Below, one piece after another: positions 1,283 through 7,180 of a stretch of DNA of 32,000 nt. Each line of letters begins with the position of its first letter. The stretch's first letter is position 1. Source of the stretch: Micrococcus luteus NCTC 2665 (GTDB lineage Bacteria; Actinomycetota; Actinomycetes; Actinomycetales; Micrococcaceae); contig NC_012803.1 of the NCBI RefSeq assembly GCF_000023205.1, positions 1,200,001 through 1,232,000 of the forward strand. The letters are read 5' to 3'. A model generated the notes under the pieces. That model did not search any database. It saw nothing but the letters and a program-made list of their open reading frames with translations, and was not told the origin of the DNA. Both the position numbers and the translations under genes were made by a program.

Positions 1283-3412
1283 ATGAGCCTGGCCCAGAAG
1301 ATCAACCGCGTCGTCGCCCCGTTCGAGGTCATCTCCCCGTACCAGCCCTCCGGTGACCAGCCGAAGGCCATCGCCGAGCTCGCCGAGCGCGTGGAGGCGG
1401 GGGAGAAGGACGTCGTCCTGATGGGCGCCACCGGCACGGGCAAGTCGGCGACGACGGCGTGGCTCGTCGAGCGCCTCCAGCGGCCCACGCTGGTGATGGT
1501 GCAGAACAAGACGCTCGCCGCGCAGCTGGCCAACGAGTTCCGCGAGCTGCTGCCCAACAACGCGGTCGAGTACTTCGTCTCCTACTACGACTACTACCAG
1601 CCCGAGGCGTACGTCCCGCAGACGGACACCTTCATCGAGAAGGACTCCTCCATCAACGAGGAGGTCGAGCGGCTGCGCCACTCGGCCACGAACGCGCTGC
1701 TGACCCGGCGGGACGTGATCGTGGTGGCCACGGTCTCCTGCATCTACGGCCTCGGCACCCCCGAGGAGTACATCGAGCAGATGGTCACCCTGCGCCGCGG
1801 TGCGGAGATGGACCGGGACGTGCTCCTGCGGCGGTTCGTGCAGATGCAGTACGTGCGCAATGACGTCGACTTCCACCGCGGCACCTTCCGGGTGCGGGGG
1901 GACACCGTGGAGATCATCCCCATGTACGAGGAGCTCGCGGTGCGCATCGAGTTCTTCGGGGACGAGATCGAGTCCATCCAGACCCTGCACCCGCTCACCG
2001 GCCAGGTGGTGCGCGAGGAGGAGGAGATGTACATCTTCCCGGCCTCGCACTACGTGGCCGGCGACGAGCGCATGGGCCGGGCGATCACCACCATCGAGGA
2101 CGAGCTGCGGGAGCGGCTGCAGGAGCTGGAGTCCCAGGACAAGCTGCTCGAGGCGCAGCGGCTGCGCATGCGAACCACGTACGACCTCGAGATGATGCAG
2201 CAGATGGGCTACTGCAACGGCATCGAGAACTACTCGCGCCACATCGACGGCCGTCCCGCCGGCTCCGCCCCGCACTGCCTGCTGGACTACTTCCCGGACG
2301 ACTTCCTGCTCGTGGTGGACGAGTCCCACGTGACCATCCCGCAGATCGGCGCGATGTACGAGGGAGACATGTCCCGCAAGCGCACCCTCGTGGAGCACGG
2401 CTTCCGCCTGCCCTCGGCCATGGACAACCGCCCGCTGAAGTGGGACGAGTTCCTCGAGCGGATCGGGCAGACCGTGTACCTCTCCGCGACGCCGGGCGCC
2501 TACGAGCTCGGCCAGGCGGACGGCTATGTCGAGCAGATCATCCGGCCCACCGGCCTCGTGGACCCGCAGGTGGTGGTCAAGCCGACCGAGGGCCAGATCG
2601 ACGACCTGCTCGAGCAGATCCGCGTGCGCACGGCCAAGGACGAGCGCGTCCTGGTGACCACGCTGACCAAGCGCATGGCCGAGGACCTCACGGACTACCT
2701 GCTCGAGGCGGGGGTGAAGGTCGAGTACCTCCACTCGGATGTGGACACGCTGCGCCGCGTGGAGCTGCTGCGGGAGCTGCGCAAGGGCACCTTCGACGTG
2801 CTGGTGGGCATCAACCTGCTGCGCGAGGGCCTGGACCTGCCCGAGGTCTCGCTCGTGGCGATCCTGGACGCGGACAAGGAGGGCTTCCTGCGCTCCACCA
2901 CCTCCCTCATCCAGACCATCGGCCGCGCCGCCCGCAACGTGTCCGGCGAGGTCCACATGTACGCGGGCAACGTCACCGACTCCATGCGCCGGGCGATCGA
3001 GGAGACCGAGCGGCGCCGGGCCGTGCAGATCGCCTACAACGAGGAGCACGGGATCGACCCCCAGCCCCTGCGCAAGCGCATCGCGGACATCACGGACCAG
3101 CTGGCCCGGGAGGACGCGGACACCGCCGACTTCCTCAAGGGCATGGGCGGCGTGAAGTCCGGGTTCGACTTCGGCATGGGCCACCGCGGCCTCAGCTCGC
3201 TGGACCGGGCCCCGGCCACGGGGGAGGGTGCCGCGGCCCCGGCGGTGGACCCGGCGTCGCTGCCCGCCAAGGACCTGGCCGATCTGATCGAGCAGATGTC
3301 GCAGCAGATGCACCAGGCGGCAGCGGACCTGCAGTTCGAGCTCGCGGCCCGCCTGCGCGATGAGGTCGGCGAGCTCAAGAAGGAGCTGCGGCAGATGAAG
3401 CGGGAGCAGTGA
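1283..3412 (+). CDS. uvrB: Excinuclease ABC subunit B
   Basis: 709 aa. Walker [11 protein letters not shown], beta-hairpin region [18 protein letters not shown], helicase motif [12 protein letters not shown]-terminal UVR domain [12 protein letters not shown]. Confidence 0.97.
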
Positions 3413-3415
3413 CCA

Positions 3416-3438
3416 CCCGGCGCGTTCCGCGCCCCGGG
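3416..3438 (+). terminator. Weak hairpin after uvrB (GGCGCG-ttc-CGCGCC flanked by CCC/GGG)
   Basis: Short GC stem starting 4 nt after the uvrB stop, followed by an AT-rich stretch. Imperfect. Confidence 0.3.
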
Positions 3439-3450
3439 CTGTTATGAAAA

Positions 3451-3483
3451 CACTGATGAACGTCGTCATATCAGTGATAGTGT
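3451..3483 (+). promoter_or_regulatory. Palindromic operator (CACTGAT-N12-ATCAGTG) overlapping an extended -10 (TGaTAGTGT) of the satD-like gene
   Basis: Perfect 7-bp inverted repeat at 3451-3457 / 3470-3476, with an inner ATGA/TCAT complement. TGn+TAGTGT at 3475-3483 lies 6 nt before the ATG at 3490 (leaderless geometry). Most AT-rich stretch I can see in the window. Confidence 0.45.
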
Positions 3484-3489
3484 GACGCC

Positions 3490-4128
3490 ATGAGCGCAGC
3501 ACCCCCGGTCGCGGCCGTGATCGCGGACATCGTCGGCTCCCGCGCCCTCCCGGACCGGGACCGCGCGCAGGAGCAGATCCTGGCCGCCTTCGCGGCCGCG
3601 GAACAGGACGTCCCGCCGCTGCGTCCCGCCTGGGCCAGCGTCGGCGACGAGTTCCAGGCGCTGCACCGCACCTGGCCGGACGCGCTCCGGCTGACCGTCC
3701 GCGTCACGCTCGCCCTGCCCCCGGGCCTCGACCTGCGCTTCGGGATCGGCCTGGGGCAGCGGCGGGCCCTGGACGCCGGCGGAGACGGCATCGAGGACGG
3801 CACGGCCTGGTATCGGGCCCGCGAGGCCGTCGAGCGCGCCCACGAGCGGGCCGCCGGCGCCGCGACCGCCTTCCGTGCCGCGGACCCGTCCCTCACCGCC
3901 GCCGTGGACGGGCTCGTCCTGCTGCGCGACCACGTCCTCGGTCGGCTCAAGGCCCGCGAACGCCGGATCGCCGCCGCCCTGCTGGGCGGGGCGACCCAGG
4001 CGGAGGCCGCACGGGCGGAGCGGATCACGCAGTCCGCGGTGTCGCAGGCCGTCGCGCGGTCCGGAATCGACCGGCTGCTCGAGCTTGACGACGAGCTCGC
4101 CGCCGCGGCGACGGAGGTCGCGCCGTGA
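3490..4128 (+). CDS. SatD-family-like protein: cyclase-homology-like N-terminal domain plus C-terminal HTH
   Basis: 212 aa with GC3-rich codons. Motifs IADIVGSR, VGDEFQAL (the DEF motif I associate with the SatD family) and LRFGIGLG. C-terminal HTH GATQAEAARAERITQSAVSQAVARSG. Family assignment is from memory and was not searched. Confidence 0.65.
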   Translation: MSAAPPVAAVIADIVGSRALPDRDRAQEQILAAFAAAEQDVPPLRPAWASVGDEFQALHRTWPDALRLTVRVTLALPPGLDLRFGIGLGQRRALDAGGDGIEDGTAWYRAREAVERAHERAAGAATAFRAADPSLTAAVDGLVLLRDHVLGRLKARERRIAAALLGGATQAEAARAERITQSAVSQAVARSGIDRLLELDDELAAAATEVAP

Positions 4129-4889
4129 CCGCCCTCGCACTGCTCGCCCTGGGGCTGCACGACCTGCTCGACGCCGTCCTGCCGGGCGCCTGGCCCGCCC
4201 CCCGGCGGCGGTGGCTGGCCCGGGCCGGCGCGGCCGTGGCCGCCGCCCTCGCCGCGGTGCTGGTGGCTGTCCTGGTGCCGACCGGCATGTCCATCGCGGT
4301 GGGCGGCGGCCTGGTGGCCCTCGGCCTGCTGATGGGCTGGACATGGCTGCACCCGGACCGGCCGCTCGGGGTGGTCGCGGTGGTGGCCGCGGTCGGCCTC
4401 GTGGCCGTGCTCGAGTCGACCCTGGCGCCCGCGGGCCTGCGCTCCGCGCCCCCGGCCCTCACGCTGCTGGCGGTGGCGGTGGCGCTGACCGAGACCGGCA
4501 ACCGGGTCACCCGCGCGGTCCTCGCCCTGGCGGGCCGGCCCGCCGACGGGGGCGAAGAGGAGGCGGAGGCCCCCGCGGCGGAGCACGCGACCGTGCCGTC
4601 CGCCGCGCCCACGGACGCCGCGGCCGACGGCCTGCGCGGCGGCCGCTACATCGGGACCATGGAGCGGCTGCTCATGGTCGTGCTGGGGCTCGCGCAGGCC
4701 TATCCGGTGATCGCGGCCCTGATGGCGGCCAAGGGCATCGTGCGCTTCCCGGAGATCTCGGCGGACCGCGGAGCCGGCTCGCGCGCGGAGGAGTTCCTCA
4801 TCGGCTCCCTCGCCAGCTGGGGCCTGGCCGCCGCCGGCGCCGTCGTCGTCTGGCTCGCCCTCGGCTTGACCGCCCCCGGCGCAGCCTGA
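4125..4889 (+). CDS. Polytopic membrane protein, DUF3307-like (SatD partner)
   Basis: 254 aa. GTG start overlaps the satD-like stop (GTGA). Several Ala/Leu/Val-rich TM segments, N-terminal GLHDLLD, a central acidic/Ala linker, then GGRYIGTMERL...KGIVRFPE. DUF3307 resemblance is from memory. Confidence 0.65.
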   Translation: MTALALLALGLHDLLDAVLPGAWPAPRRRWLARAGAAVAAALAAVLVAVLVPTGMSIAVGGGLVALGLLMGWTWLHPDRPLGVVAVVAAVGLVAVLESTLAPAGLRSAPPALTLLAVAVALTETGNRVTRAVLALAGRPADGGEEEAEAPAAEHATVPSAAPTDAAADGLRGGRYIGTMERLLMVVLGLAQAYPVIAALMAAKGIVRFPEISADRGAGSRAEEFLIGSLASWGLAAAGAVVVWLALGLTAPGAA

Positions 4890-4930
4890 GACCGGGCCCA
4901 CCCGCATCCGCGCGCGGGGCCGCACCCGTC

Positions 4931-4936
4931 TAGACT
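4931..4936 (+). promoter_or_regulatory. -10 element TAGACT upstream of TerC copy 1
   Basis: TAnnnT hexamer 35 nt upstream of the GTG at 4972. The same TAGACTG heptamer recurs at 5757 and 23734 in front of other genes. Confidence 0.35.
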
Positions 4937-4971
4937 GGCGCGGCCCCCACGAAAGGAACCCCTCCAAGGAC

Positions 4972-5904
4972 GTGCTCAGTCCCGCCTTCGAGACCACGAC
5001 CCTTGTGGTCCTCGGCGTCATCCTCCTGCTTGACCTGCTGTACGTCGCGCGCCGCCCCCACGAGCCCTCCATGAAGGAGGCCGGCCTGTGGATCGGGTTC
5101 TACGTGGCGCTGGCGCTGGTCTTCGCGGCGCTGGTCTTCGCGGGGCTGCTCTTCGCCCTGGGCGATGCGCAGCACGGCACCGAGTTCCTCGCCGGCTGGG
5201 TCACCGAGTACAGCCTCAGCGTGGACAACCTGTTCGTGTTCCTCATCATCATGGCCAAGTTCCAGGTGCCCCGCCGCCACCGGCAGGAGGTGCTGATGGT
5301 GGGCATCATCATCGCGCTGATCGCCCGCGCGGTGTTCATCGCGGTCGGCGCCGTCGCCATCGAGCACCTGACGTGGGTGTTCTACATCTTCGGCGCCTTC
5401 CTGCTCTGGACCGCCTGGCAGCAGCTCAAGGACGACGGCGGGGACGAGGAGTCCGAGCCGGGTGTCGTGGCCCGCCTGACCCGCCGCCTCAACGTGGCGC
5501 CGGACTACGACGGCAACCGACTGCGCACCACCGTGGACGGCCGGCGCATGTTCACCCCCATGGTGGTCGTGTTCATCACGATCGGCCTGACGGACGTGAT
5601 GTTCGCGGTGGACTCCATCCCGGCGATCTTCGGCCTCACCCAGAACTGGTTCATCGTCCTGACCGCCAACATCTTCGCCCTCATGGGCCTGCGTCAGCGG
5701 GCCCGACGACGCCCCGCTCCGCCCGCCGCGGGTCGGGGCGTCGTCGTGCGACGGGGTAGACTGACCGGCGACGTAGGGGAGTATCCCGAACACTGTGGAC
5801 GTCAGCACGCCGCGGCCGCCGAGAGCGCGCCGCCGGCCGGACACAGGGGCCCGGGCCGCGGTCGCGGCGGGCGGAGAGACTTGCGGCACCGTCCTGACCC
5901 CTGA
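4972..5904 (+). CDS. TerC-family membrane protein, C-terminally truncated (probable pseudogene / remnant)
   Basis: SD AAGGA before the GTG. TerC motifs SVDNLFVF and AVDSIPAIFG. Collinear with the downstream TerC up to MGLRQ (codon 242, ends at 5697). After that comes an Arg/Pro/Gly-rich tail that reads through a hairpin, a promoter and the riboswitch to the stop at 5902-5904. Confidence 0.6.
   Translation: MLSPAFETTTLVVLGVILLLDLLYVARRPHEPSMKEAGLWIGFYVALALVFAALVFAGLLFALGDAQHGTEFLAGWVTEYSLSVDNLFVFLIIMAKFQVPRRHRQEVLMVGIIIALIARAVFIAVGAVAIEHLTWVFYIFGAFLLWTAWQQLKDDGGDEESEPGVVARLTRRLNVAPDYDGNRLRTTVDGRRMFTPMVVVFITIGLTDVMFAVDSIPAIFGLTQNWFIVLTANIFALMGLRQRARRRPAPPAAGRGVVVRRGRLTGDVGEYPEHCGRQHAAAAESAPPAGHRGPGRGRGGRRDLRHRPDP
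5704..5746 (+). terminator. 13-bp perfect GC hairpin (CGACGACGCCCCG / CGGGGCGTCGTCG)
   Basis: Perfect inverted repeat 5704-5716 / 5734-5746 with a partly self-pairing 17-nt loop. Starts 7 nt after TerC homology ends in copy 1. No U-tract, which is common for actinobacterial terminators. Confidence 0.5.
5757..5762 (+). promoter_or_regulatory. -10 element TAGACT driving the riboswitch/TerC copy 2 transcript
   Basis: TAnnnT hexamer immediately upstream of the riboswitch-like element. Confidence 0.4.
5768..5895 (+). promoter_or_regulatory. Candidate yybP-ykoY (Mn2+) riboswitch
   Basis: GGGGAGTA at 5776-5783 (L1-like). GGACACAG at 5840-5847, a GC hairpin around 5850-5872, then GGAGAGACTTGC at 5873-5884 (L3-like). 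5772-5777 can pair with 5880-5885 as P1. Sits directly upstream of a TerC gene, a classic regulated gene class for this riboswitch. Confidence 0.6.
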
Positions 5905-5920
5905 CGCCGAGAGGTGACCC

Positions 5921-7180
5921 GTGGAAATCAACGGCCTGACCTGGGGCCTGACGATCGCGCTGATCGTCGGGCTCCTCGCGTTCGACTACTTCGCCCATGT
6001 CCGCAAGGCGCACACGCCGTCGATCCGGGAGGCCGCGATCTGGTCCGGCGTCTACGTCGGCCTCGCGCTCGTCTTCGGCCTCGTGTTCTTCGCCTTCGGC
6101 GACACCCAGCACGCGGTCGAGTACTACACCGGCTACCTGCTGGAGAAGGCGCTCAGCGTCGACAACCTGTTCGTCTTCCTGGTGATCATGGCCAGCTTCC
6201 GCGTGCCCCGCGACTACCAGCAGAAGGTGCTGCTGTTCGGCATCACGTTCGCGCTGATCTCGCGCACCTTGTTCATCCTGCTGGGCGCCGCCGTGATCTC
6301 CGCCTGGTCCGACGTCTTCTACCTCTTCGGCATCCTCCTGCTCGTCATCGCCGGCGGACAGCTCAAGGGCGAGATGACCGGCGACGCCGAGGGCGCCCAG
6401 GACGAGGCGGACAACGTGATGGTCCGCCTGGTCAAGCGGTTCCTGCCCGCCTCCGACCAGTTCGACGGCGACCGGCTCTTCACGACGGTGGACGGCAAGC
6501 GCCTCATGACGCCGATGCTGCTCGTGATGATCGCGATCGGCGCCACCGACGTGCTGTTCGCCTTCGACTCGATCCCGGCGATCTTCGGCGTGACCCAGGA
6601 GGCGTACATCGTCTTCACCGCCACGGCGTTCTCGCTCATGGGCCTGCGCCAGCTGTACTTCCTCATCGACGGCCTCCTGGACCGGCTCGTGTACCTCGCG
6701 TACGGCCTCGCCGCCCTGCTCGGGTTCATCGGCGTGAAGCTGATCCTGCACGCCCTGCACGAGAACAACCTGCCGTTCATCAACGGCGGCGAGAACGTGC
6801 CCGTCGTCGAGATCCCCACGACGCTGTCCCTCGTGGTCGTCGTCGTGATCCTGGCCATCACCGTGGCGATCTCCCTGGCCTCGCCGAAGGGCCAGGCCCT
6901 GCGGGCGCTGCAGAACGCCGAGAAGTACTCGTACCGCTACTCGAAGCTGCCCGAGGACGCCGACCCGGCCGAGCGCGAGCGAGCCGCCGCCCTGATGGAC
7001 CGCTGGACGGCCCGGGCCGAGGCCCTGGACCAGCGCTGGCGCGACCAGCTGCTCGAGCACAAGGACGCGTGGTCGGCCATCATCCGCACGGCCCACGAGA
7101 CCCGGCTCGCCGATCCCCGTGACGACGACGCGCGCGGGGTCTCCGAGCAGATCGTGCGGCAGGACGGGCCCACCGTCTGA
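5921..7180 (+). CDS. TerC-family integral membrane protein (full length, long cytoplasmic C-terminal tail)
   Basis: 419 aa. SD GAGAGG 6 nt before the GTG. Motifs SVDNLFVFLVIM, AFDSIPAIFGVT, MGLRQLYFLIDGLLDRLVYL. About 100 aa of charged tail. Confidence 0.9.
   Translation: MEINGLTWGLTIALIVGLLAFDYFAHVRKAHTPSIREAAIWSGVYVGLALVFGLVFFAFGDTQHAVEYYTGYLLEKALSVDNLFVFLVIMASFRVPRDYQQKVLLFGITFALISRTLFILLGAAVISAWSDVFYLFGILLLVIAGGQLKGEMTGDAEGAQDEADNVMVRLVKRFLPASDQFDGDRLFTTVDGKRLMTPMLLVMIAIGATDVLFAFDSIPAIFGVTQEAYIVFTATAFSLMGLRQLYFLIDGLLDRLVYLAYGLAALLGFIGVKLILHALHENNLPFINGGENVPVVEIPTTLSLVVVVVILAITVAISLASPKGQALRALQNAEKYSYRYSKLPEDADPAERERAAALMDRWTARAEALDQRWRDQLLEHKDAWSAIIRTAHETRLADPRDDDARGVSEQIVRQDGPTV

Follow-up and report, generated by a model that had tools for sequence, protein, structure and literature searches.

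A conserved two-gene cassette in Micrococcus luteus pairs SatD, a predicted cyclase-fold and helix-turn-helix protein, with a membrane protein behind a palindromic operator

In a stretch of 32,000 nucleotides (nt) from Micrococcus luteus NCTC 2665 (contig NC_012803.1, positions 1,200,001 to 1,232,000; this whole stretch is called the window below, and all coordinates are counted from its first letter), two overlapping genes lie between uvrB and a tandem of terC genes. The first, satD, encodes a protein of the SatD family; the second encodes a polytopic membrane protein, which we call the partner. A preliminary description of this DNA, made from the letters alone, had portrayed the two genes as a signalling module in which SatD joins a class III nucleotidyl cyclase-like domain to a C-terminal helix-turn-helix (HTH) domain and a palindromic operator precedes the pair. 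Following this up computationally, we find that SatD is predicted to carry a cyclase-type palm with near-invariant residues, that the two genes are almost always neighbours in related Actinomycetota, and that the operator is conserved in position and varies together with the HTH recognition helix. We consider it probable that the cassette is autoregulated, with SatD acting as a repressor that binds a ligand resembling a magnesium-bound nucleoside triphosphate (Mg-NTP) and the membrane protein as its output.

Organization of the satD locus

The features of the locus are collected in Table 1. M. luteus assemblies, including LS483396.1, carry an identical SatD protein of 212 amino acids (aa), and the gene order is coaE-uvrB-satD-partner-terC-terC. 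What the preliminary description had read from the letters is present in the sequence: the stop codon of satD (TGA, 4126-4128) overlaps the GTG start of the partner gene (4125-4127) as GTGA, the CACTGAT-N12-ATCAGTG inverted repeat is perfect, an extended −10 element ends 6 nt before the satD ATG, and the pair lies behind the most AT-rich spot of the window. GC content reaches its minimum for the window at this spot, in the 60-mer at 3439-3499 (45%, against 72.8% overall). Through the GTGA overlap, translation of the partner gene is probably coupled to that of satD.

Table 1. Features of the satD cassette and its borders, in window coordinates
Feature	Position	Strand	Remarks
GC-rich hairpin 3' of uvrB	3416..3438	+	RNA fold −18.9 kcal/mol, z = −2.79; distinct from the palindrome
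Palindrome CACTGAT-N12-ATCAGTG	3451..3476	.	Perfect arms at 3451-3457 and 3470-3476; sole such site in 32 kb
Extended −10	3475..3483	+	TG (3475-3476), one base, TAGTGT (3478-3483)
satD ATG, putative transcription start	3490..3492	+	6 nt after the −10 hexamer; without Shine-Dalgarno sequence
satD coding sequence (ORF1)	3490..4128	+	212 aa, ATG start; Pfam SatD PF16264
SatD N-terminal palm (aa 1-132)	3490..3885	+	Class III cyclase/GGDEF-type, predicted from AlphaFold2, Foldseek and conservation
SatD HTH (aa 150-200)	3937..4089	+	Sigma-70 region 4/KorA-like; recognition helix ITQSAVSQ
GGAGG Shine-Dalgarno sequence of gene 2	4113..4117	+	Within the 3' end of satD, 7 nt before GTG 4125
Membrane partner coding sequence (ORF2)	4125..4889	+	254 aa, GTG start; putatively coupled to satD via GTGA
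Conserved C-terminal core of partner (aa 170-232)	4632..4820	+	LRGGRxIGxLER, AAKGIVRFPEIS, AEEFLxGSLxSW
GC-rich hairpin GGGGCCGC...GCGGCCCC 3' of gene 2	4916..4947	+	From folding; possible terminator

SatD carries a predicted cyclase-type palm domain

The family label given to SatD in the preliminary description stands: the window protein matches Pfam PF16264 with 47.8 bits, above the curated gathering threshold of 29, over residues 9-188, and all 121 collected homologues match the same family. AlphaFold2 models the protein with high confidence (predicted local distance difference test, pLDDT, 95.2; predicted template-modelling score, pTM, 0.91), and its N-terminal domain shows the beta-alpha-alpha-beta-beta-alpha-beta order of a palm. 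When this model was compared with the PDB using Foldseek, 26 chains were returned at E ≤ 1e-3, and all except 3onq belong to cyclase or GGDEF types, namely adenylyl and guanylyl cyclases (Rv1900c, CyaC, Ma1120, mammalian adenylyl cyclase and soluble guanylyl cyclase), pyrimidine cyclases (PycC, 7r65, and 8jsz) and GGDEF domains. The leading entries are 1ybu, 1wc1, 7r65, 4wp9 and 6et7. Rv1900c is the best match (E = 4e-5, 21-23% identity), and a probability of 1.00 with E between 4e-5 and 1e-3 was obtained for 1ybu, 1wc1, 4wp9, 1azs, 3uvj and 7r65. The proposed similarity to both cyclase and GGDEF palms is thus borne out by matches of both types, with class III cyclases giving the stronger ones and GGDEF domains the weaker.

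The motifs tell a similar story. Using hhalign, the SatD profile was aligned with adenylyl cyclase VC1, whose template sequence we verified as identical to 1azs_A. The alignment pairs ADIVGSR with FADIVGFT, VGDEFQ with ILGDCYY and LRFGIGLG with MRVGIHSG, placing D13, D53 and R83 of SatD opposite D396, D440 and R484 of VC1; this mapping is consistent with the order of secondary structures in the AlphaFold2 model, and it ends at residue 92. Of four cyclase motifs that had been assigned to SatD by eye, the first three are therefore recovered, and the fourth, GTAWYRAREA, was aligned by no tool. When helix alpha4 is set in register manually, R111 appears to match the Arg of cyclases, and the position of their Asn appears to be taken by W107, which is invariant.

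Conservation was counted over 293 distinct actinobacterial SatD sequences for the key palm residues D13, S17, R18, R23, D53, E54, Q56, R83, W107 and R111. E54, Q56, W107 and R111 are present in all 293, each of D13, S17, R23, D53 and R83 in 292, and R18 in 268, so the two metal-binding Asp residues, D13 and D53, are conserved as a pair, as had been anticipated. The hairpin of SatD reads VGDEF and lacks the first Gly of the GG[DE]EF signature of GGDEF domains (PF00990). Guanylate_cyc is not among the six Pfam families that match the window SatD at E ≤ 1, and searches of the PDB with the SatD sequence and profile gave HTH proteins only, with zero cyclases. Because neither profile models nor PDB sequence searches return a cyclase, the kinship appears to be hidden from sequence profiles, and the similarity of SatD to cyclases is confined to fold and motifs.

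The C-terminal domain of SatD resembles sigma-70 region 4

Among the 121 homologues, Pfam matches to Sigma70_r4 (71/121), Sigma70_r4_2 (48/121) and KORA (32/121; best 1.4e-4) are weak but recurrent, and a profile search of the PDB matches the SatD HTH with region 4 of SigF (E = 0.005). The domain also resembles Cro. Both kinds of match support the sigma-70 region 4-like HTH that had been suggested for the C-terminus. The sigma70-ECF model TIGR02937 gives SatD 12.2 bits where 42.9 would be required, and the match covers region 4 only, without region 2. We considered membership of SatD in an extracytoplasmic function (ECF) sigma/anti-sigma system and rejected it: SatD stays below the TIGR02937 cut-off, and at its N-terminus it has a palm in place of region 2.

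A conserved operator overlaps a putatively leaderless promoter

To place the palindrome in a family context, we counted 80 loci, the window and 79 related ones. The pattern CT[GT]ATA-N9/10-TAT[AC]AG, searched with at most two mismatches in the 140 nt upstream of satD, is found in 72 of the 80 with its distance to the start codon preserved, so that the palindrome is indeed a feature of orthologous loci. In the window, the family half-sites lie within the palindrome as CTGATG (3453-3458) and TATCAG (3469-3474), with an N10 spacer. Across the 72 loci the right arm is followed by [TC]G, one base, TANNNT, 6 nt and an ATG or GTG start codon at +16..+18; counted after the right half-site, T stands at position +4 in 66 loci, A at +5 in 64 and T at +9 in 69.

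TANNNT is the actinobacterial −10 consensus, and in a leaderless transcript it would end 6-7 nt upstream of a start codon that lacks a Shine-Dalgarno sequence. In the window the interval is 6 nt and a Shine-Dalgarno sequence is absent, and because the −10 element sits so that transcription starts at the start codon, the arrangement indicates a leaderless satD transcript that would begin at or one base from the ATG. The leaderless geometry proposed for the window thus holds across the family. A scan for E. coli-type promoters and terminators found nothing, an outcome to be expected in M. luteus.

A single palindrome in such DNA would carry little weight. The window contains 180 perfect inverted repeats with 7-bp arms and loops of 0-20 nt (just two of them with A/T-rich arms), and since such repeats are frequent, the significance of this one rests on its conservation. 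That it is incidental, a by-product of AT-rich intergenic DNA or a part of the uvrB terminator with no protein bound to it, is extremely improbable, even though the abundance of repeats weakens any individual case. Its position and spacing are kept in the 72 loci across differing contexts. When no more than one mismatch is allowed, the 140 nt upstream of satD contain 6.05 sites per kb and 585 kb of other DNA 0.01 per kb, an enrichment of about 500-fold at satD promoters. The half-site also varies together with the recognition helix of the HTH across relatives: the helix ISQSAVSQ goes with CT[TG]ATA, the Actinomyces helices QQAVSD/QSAVSA with CTTGTA..TACAAG, and the Curtobacterium helix ITPSAVSQ with CTTACT..ATGAAG. 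The uvrB gene has its own hairpin immediately upstream, and as RNA the palindrome folds no better than shuffled sequence (z = −0.38); on these two grounds we rejected the palindrome as a uvrB terminator. The hairpin is itself likely to be this terminator and, with it, the upstream border of the cassette.

In Microbacteriaceae, arrays of three to four alternating half-sites occur in promoter and 3' regions (L044, L055, L056, L061, L068, L069 and L072 among the loci). One example reads ATTAG-N7-CTTAT-N9-TATTAG-N7-CTAATA, with the −10 element between copies. This placement of the −10 suggests binding by more than one dimer.

The membrane partner

The partner is annotated in the sources solely as 'hypothetical protein' or 'Integral membrane protein', and its family comprises 3953 clusters at 50% identity. 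In the AlphaFold model of the partner (pLDDT 81), the chain forms about eight helices, and an acidic loop at aa 141-172 is disordered. Eleven residues are invariant among 134 diverse members: G172, G173, G177, E180, R181, K203, R207, P209, E222, G227 and S231. Of the two motifs singled out in the preliminary description, GGRYIGTMERL is therefore part of the conserved core, contributing G172, G173, G177, E180 and R181, and GLHDLLD, which is N-terminal, is not conserved. Judging by the positive-inside rule, the conserved C-terminal motifs appear to face the cytoplasm.

No model in Pfam, NCBIfam, PADLOC or PHROGs matched the window partner. The earlier suggestion of a DUF3307-type neighbour did not hold up at the level of hidden Markov models (HMMs), as DUF3307 (PF11750) matched neither the window partner nor any of 255 family members (121 + 134) at E ≤ 0.1 to 1. 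A Foldseek search with the partner model against the PDB and BFVD gave nothing under E = 1.8. Weak matches to CdsA-type cytidylyltransferases (CTP_transf_1, PF01148) were seen in 8 of 121 partner homologues, with a best E of 6.5e-4. These are likely to reflect transmembrane composition, or they may be a slight sign of a membrane enzyme that uses nucleotides.

Linkage, distribution and divergence of the pair

Searching with the SatD profile recovered 80 genome loci, every one of them from Actinomycetota, and in 78 of these a homologue of the partner gene lies directly downstream of satD on the same strand. The two exceptions are from Demequina (L039 and L066) and have no detectable downstream partner; in L039 no comparable open reading frame follows satD. 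As a side observation, L039 keeps the promoter palindrome and L066 has lost it. An overlapping pair is also found on the 288-kb conjugative Arthrobacter plasmid pZXY21 (L081, CP017422.1, 136601-138111), and the operator accompanies the cassette onto this plasmid. The expectation that the two genes would co-occur in other genomes is met both by the chromosomal loci and by this copy. The plasmid pair adjoins transposase genes and has operator-like sites at both ends.

This linkage bears on a model of the sigma/anti-sigma type, in which the partner would sense an envelope or pH signal and hold or release SatD, with the palm serving for dimerisation or docking and no nucleotide involved. GTGA coupling and strict co-occurrence are typical of interacting pairs, and the HTH of SatD is sigma-region-4-like. 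Sequestration nevertheless leaves the near-invariant metal- and phosphate-binding residues unexplained, SatD falls short of a sigma factor in having no region 2 (the 12.2 against 42.9 bits given above), and a palindromic target favours a dimeric repressor over a sigma factor. We regard this model as quite unlikely.

Synteny with uvrB and terC is restricted to Micrococcus and Nesterenkonia, and for this reason the pair seems to travel as a self-standing unit, whatever its surroundings. When the window (3490-4889) was compared with nine loci of these genera (L001, L003, L010, L014, L016, L023, L024, L046 and L051), identities were 45-68% for SatD and 45-61% for the partner, against 85-93% for UvrB and 74-83% for TerC. 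The pair diverges much faster than the flanking genes.

Beyond these loci, a profile built from 13 more divergent homologues retrieved 3596 SatD clusters at 90% identity (E ≤ 0.001). Searches for non-actinobacterial SatD or DUF3307 proteins gave only high-GC or actinobacterial sequences among the top matches listed.

In six Demequina loci (L021, L026, L031, L037, L050 and L059), a conserved CTGCCACAATGGTCC box lies 40-70 nt 3' of the membrane gene and is followed by an apparent tRNA gene (GGGCCCTTAGCTCAGTTGGTTAGAGCAC). This tRNA-adjacent site could be an integration hot spot.

A second operator copy at the end of the partner gene in relatives

A second palindrome is present in 34 of 72 analysable loci, where it stands directly after the partner gene or over its stop codon, which often lies inside the left half-site (C-TGA-TA). 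The density of sites here is 5.1 per kb. Examples are L003 (5364-5384), L004 (5360-5381), L010 (5364-5384), L022 (1307-1328) and L081 (about 5462-5497). In Micrococcaceae the second copy is extended to AAAACCC-CTTATA-N10-TATAAG-GGGTTTT, and its right flank resembles the promoter flank minus the TA of the −10. The window has no second operator, the GC-rich hairpin at 4916-4947 taking its place, and none was found in Demequina, Curtobacterium or Actinomyces. Looping, a roadblock or a relic of duplication are possible roles for this copy.

The flanking operators raise the question of whether the cassette is addiction-like, in the sense that over-produced partner would be toxic and SatD would keep it repressed, with the second 3' operator of many species allowing looping. 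Cassettes with operators on both sides, varied genomic contexts and a plasmid copy would all suit this idea, as would a transposon-sequencing study of Streptococcus pyogenes in which satD is the only accessory gene within the highest range of essentiality (PMC11323703). Such essentiality would be expected for the repressor of a harmful product, although the evidence is indirect. The streptococcal observation concerns a distant SatD, however, the window has one operator only, the partner shows no similarity to known toxins or holins, and the conserved cyclase active site is left unexplained. An addiction-like role therefore seems very unlikely to us.

Regions flanking the cassette

The hairpin 3' of the partner gene has GTCTAGAC in its loop, and folding of the 86-nt stretch that holds it is not significant overall (z = −1.13). 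A similar GTAGACT string is found 5' of terC in M. terreus (L003). Downstream lie the tandem TerC genes, at 4972-5904 and 5921-7180. The first product departs from TerC sequence after ...FALMGLRQ and continues for about 70 Arg/Pro/Gly-rich residues to its end, and gene calls for it vary among M. luteus strains (310 versus 334 aa). As the TerC sequence continues in no other frame, the first gene may be a truncated or rearranged paralogue. Rfam gave zero matches on 3300-6100, and thus no riboswitch upstream of TerC.

Discussion

Taken as a whole, the preliminary description holds for its sequence features, the palm, the HTH, the linkage and the operator; the exceptions are the DUF3307 label and the fourth cyclase motif.

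The model that we favor starts from the promoter. It would be leaderless, with an extended −10 (TG-n-TAGTGT), and the 6+6 bp palindrome CTGATG-N10-TATCAG would end 3 bp upstream of the −10 and span roughly −37 to −16. A SatD dimer would bind this palindrome through its sigma-region-4/KorA-like HTH; SatD is the most economical candidate for the binder because the operator is conserved, co-varies with the recognition helix and travels with the cassette. Since the site spans about −37 to −16, we infer that bound SatD would occlude RNA polymerase and so repress both satD and the coupled membrane gene. The palm would most likely bind a Mg2+-nucleoside-triphosphate-like ligand at the dimer interface, as it keeps two metal Asp residues, the Arg residues of beta4 and alpha4, and a phosphate loop of the form D-I-x-G-S; occupancy or turnover of the ligand would then set the affinity of SatD for DNA. 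The membrane protein would be the regulated output, and its invariant charged motifs may also contact SatD. The essentiality of satD in S. pyogenes would, indirectly, fit a repressor that holds down a harmful partner.

Several points weigh against this model. The hhalign probability for SatD and VC1, obtained with a single-sequence template, is just 2.3%, and neither Guanylate_cyc (PF00211) nor GGDEF (PF00990) features in the 25 of 70 families that the Pfam listing shows for the 121 SatD homologues. The transition-state Asn of cyclases seems to be replaced in SatD by the invariant Trp, and a base-specifying Lys/Asp could not be identified. The partner is without a family and without a fold neighbour. 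An operator centred near −26 could also suit a MerR-like activator. Finally, one would expect a nearly invariant pair of catalytic Asp residues in an enzyme sooner than in a pure sensor.

This last point leads to the main alternative, that SatD is an active nucleotidyl cyclase or transferase and the partner the receptor or effector of its signal, as in Pycsar and CBASS, with the HTH providing feedback. Both metal Asp residues, E54, the phosphate loop and the two Arg residues are each retained by 292 or more of the 293 sequences, a stronger conservation than is usual in degenerate sensor palms, and the structural matches include the pyrimidine cyclases PycC (7r65) and 8jsz. Pycsar and CBASS likewise consist of two genes, for a cyclase-fold and a polytopic membrane protein, and in the partner the invariant basic and acidic residues R174, R181, K203, R207, E180 and E222 lie on the predicted cytoplasmic face. 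Divergence faster than that of the flanks (SatD 45-68%, UvrB 85-93%) and the copy on a conjugative plasmid would also fit. SatD differs from these systems, however, in having an HTH and an operator, and a fusion of HTH and cyclase is not seen in known cyclase-effector systems. The partner has no recognisable nucleotide-binding domain, and in particular none for cyclic nucleotides; neither protein matched a PADLOC defence model at E ≤ 1, and neither gave a match in phage and viral collections. The palm is short, at about 130 aa, apparently without the usual dimerisation arm (judged from the secondary structure of the model), and it is missing the cyclase Asn. On balance, we think an enzyme of this kind unlikely. 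The combined version, in which SatD sits on its operator as a transcription factor and is at the same time an active cyclase or transferase whose own, possibly new, nucleotide gates the co-encoded membrane protein, strikes us as rather improbable. The repressor, enzyme, sequestration and addiction models are not mutually exclusive.

How does the cassette compare with known systems? The SatD of the S. mutans ylxM-ffh-satCDE cluster shares the Pfam family, a length of about 210 aa and a neighbouring membrane-protein gene, and streptococcal sat genes have a loose link to acid and stress tolerance. Unlike satD in the streptococcal ffh cluster, actinobacterial satD belongs to an independent two-gene cassette with an operator and what appears to be a leaderless promoter of its own, and the actinobacterial partner has no HMM match to Pfam DUF3307. 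With class III cyclases (M. tuberculosis Rv1900c, 1ybu; Spirulina CyaC, 1wc1; M. avium Ma1120, 4wp9; PycC, 7r65), SatD shares the palm fold, and the D-I-x-G-[SF] loop, the two metal Asp residues and the beta4 Arg align. It differs from them in its shorter palm (about 130 versus about 180 aa), in the Trp that appears to occupy the Asn position, in the HTH fusion, in having no sequence-model match, and in its GDEF hairpin, which is as in GGDEF domains. Pfam presumably places SatD in its nucleotide-cyclase clan, in which case the fold link may already be recorded; our literature search found no paper that joins SatD to the cyclase/GGDEF fold or gives SatD a function.

In architecture SatD resembles the PucR/CdaR regulators, such as the PucR-like protein BAD_0249 (3onq), in which a GGDEF-like palm is likewise followed by an HTH; full-length SatD matches it with a Foldseek E of 1.3e-3 over 231 columns. 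Since the whole SatD model matches 3onq, the combination of palm and HTH has a precedent. The two superpose at a root-mean-square deviation of about 15 Å with 12% identity, which indicates a different arrangement of domains and a different type of HTH, and the PucR/CdaR profiles PF17853 (GGDEF_2) and PF13556 (HTH_30) are not among the Pfam matches listed for SatD and its homologues. SatD retains the catalytic residues that have been lost from the palm of the PucR type, and PucR-type regulators have no obligatory membrane partner, unlike SatD. The weak HTH matches point to KorA/TrfB repressors and to sigma-70 region 4. KorA, too, recognises a short palindrome overlapping a promoter. Unlike KorA and sigma region 4, SatD has an N-terminal palm, a different operator and no sigma region 2.

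We therefore view SatD as a small regulator that joins an HTH to a cyclase-type domain and is set apart from PucR/CdaR by its catalytic residues, HTH type and obligatory partner. The cassette is well defined and widespread, and on present evidence it is not a new kind of system. New here is the second copy of the operator at the 3' end of gene 2 in about half of the relatives, and what was an annotation label becomes a testable model with an operator, a promoter geometry, near-invariant residues and an obligatory partner. A catalytic palm would make SatD a rare DNA-binding protein that produces a nucleotide messenger, and a sensor palm would make it a compact nucleotide-responsive repressor and a possible genetic part. 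Either way, the partner represents a family without a known fold relative. It is tempting to speculate that the repressor makes its own messenger, in which case the pair would be a new and widespread self-contained signalling or defence cassette.

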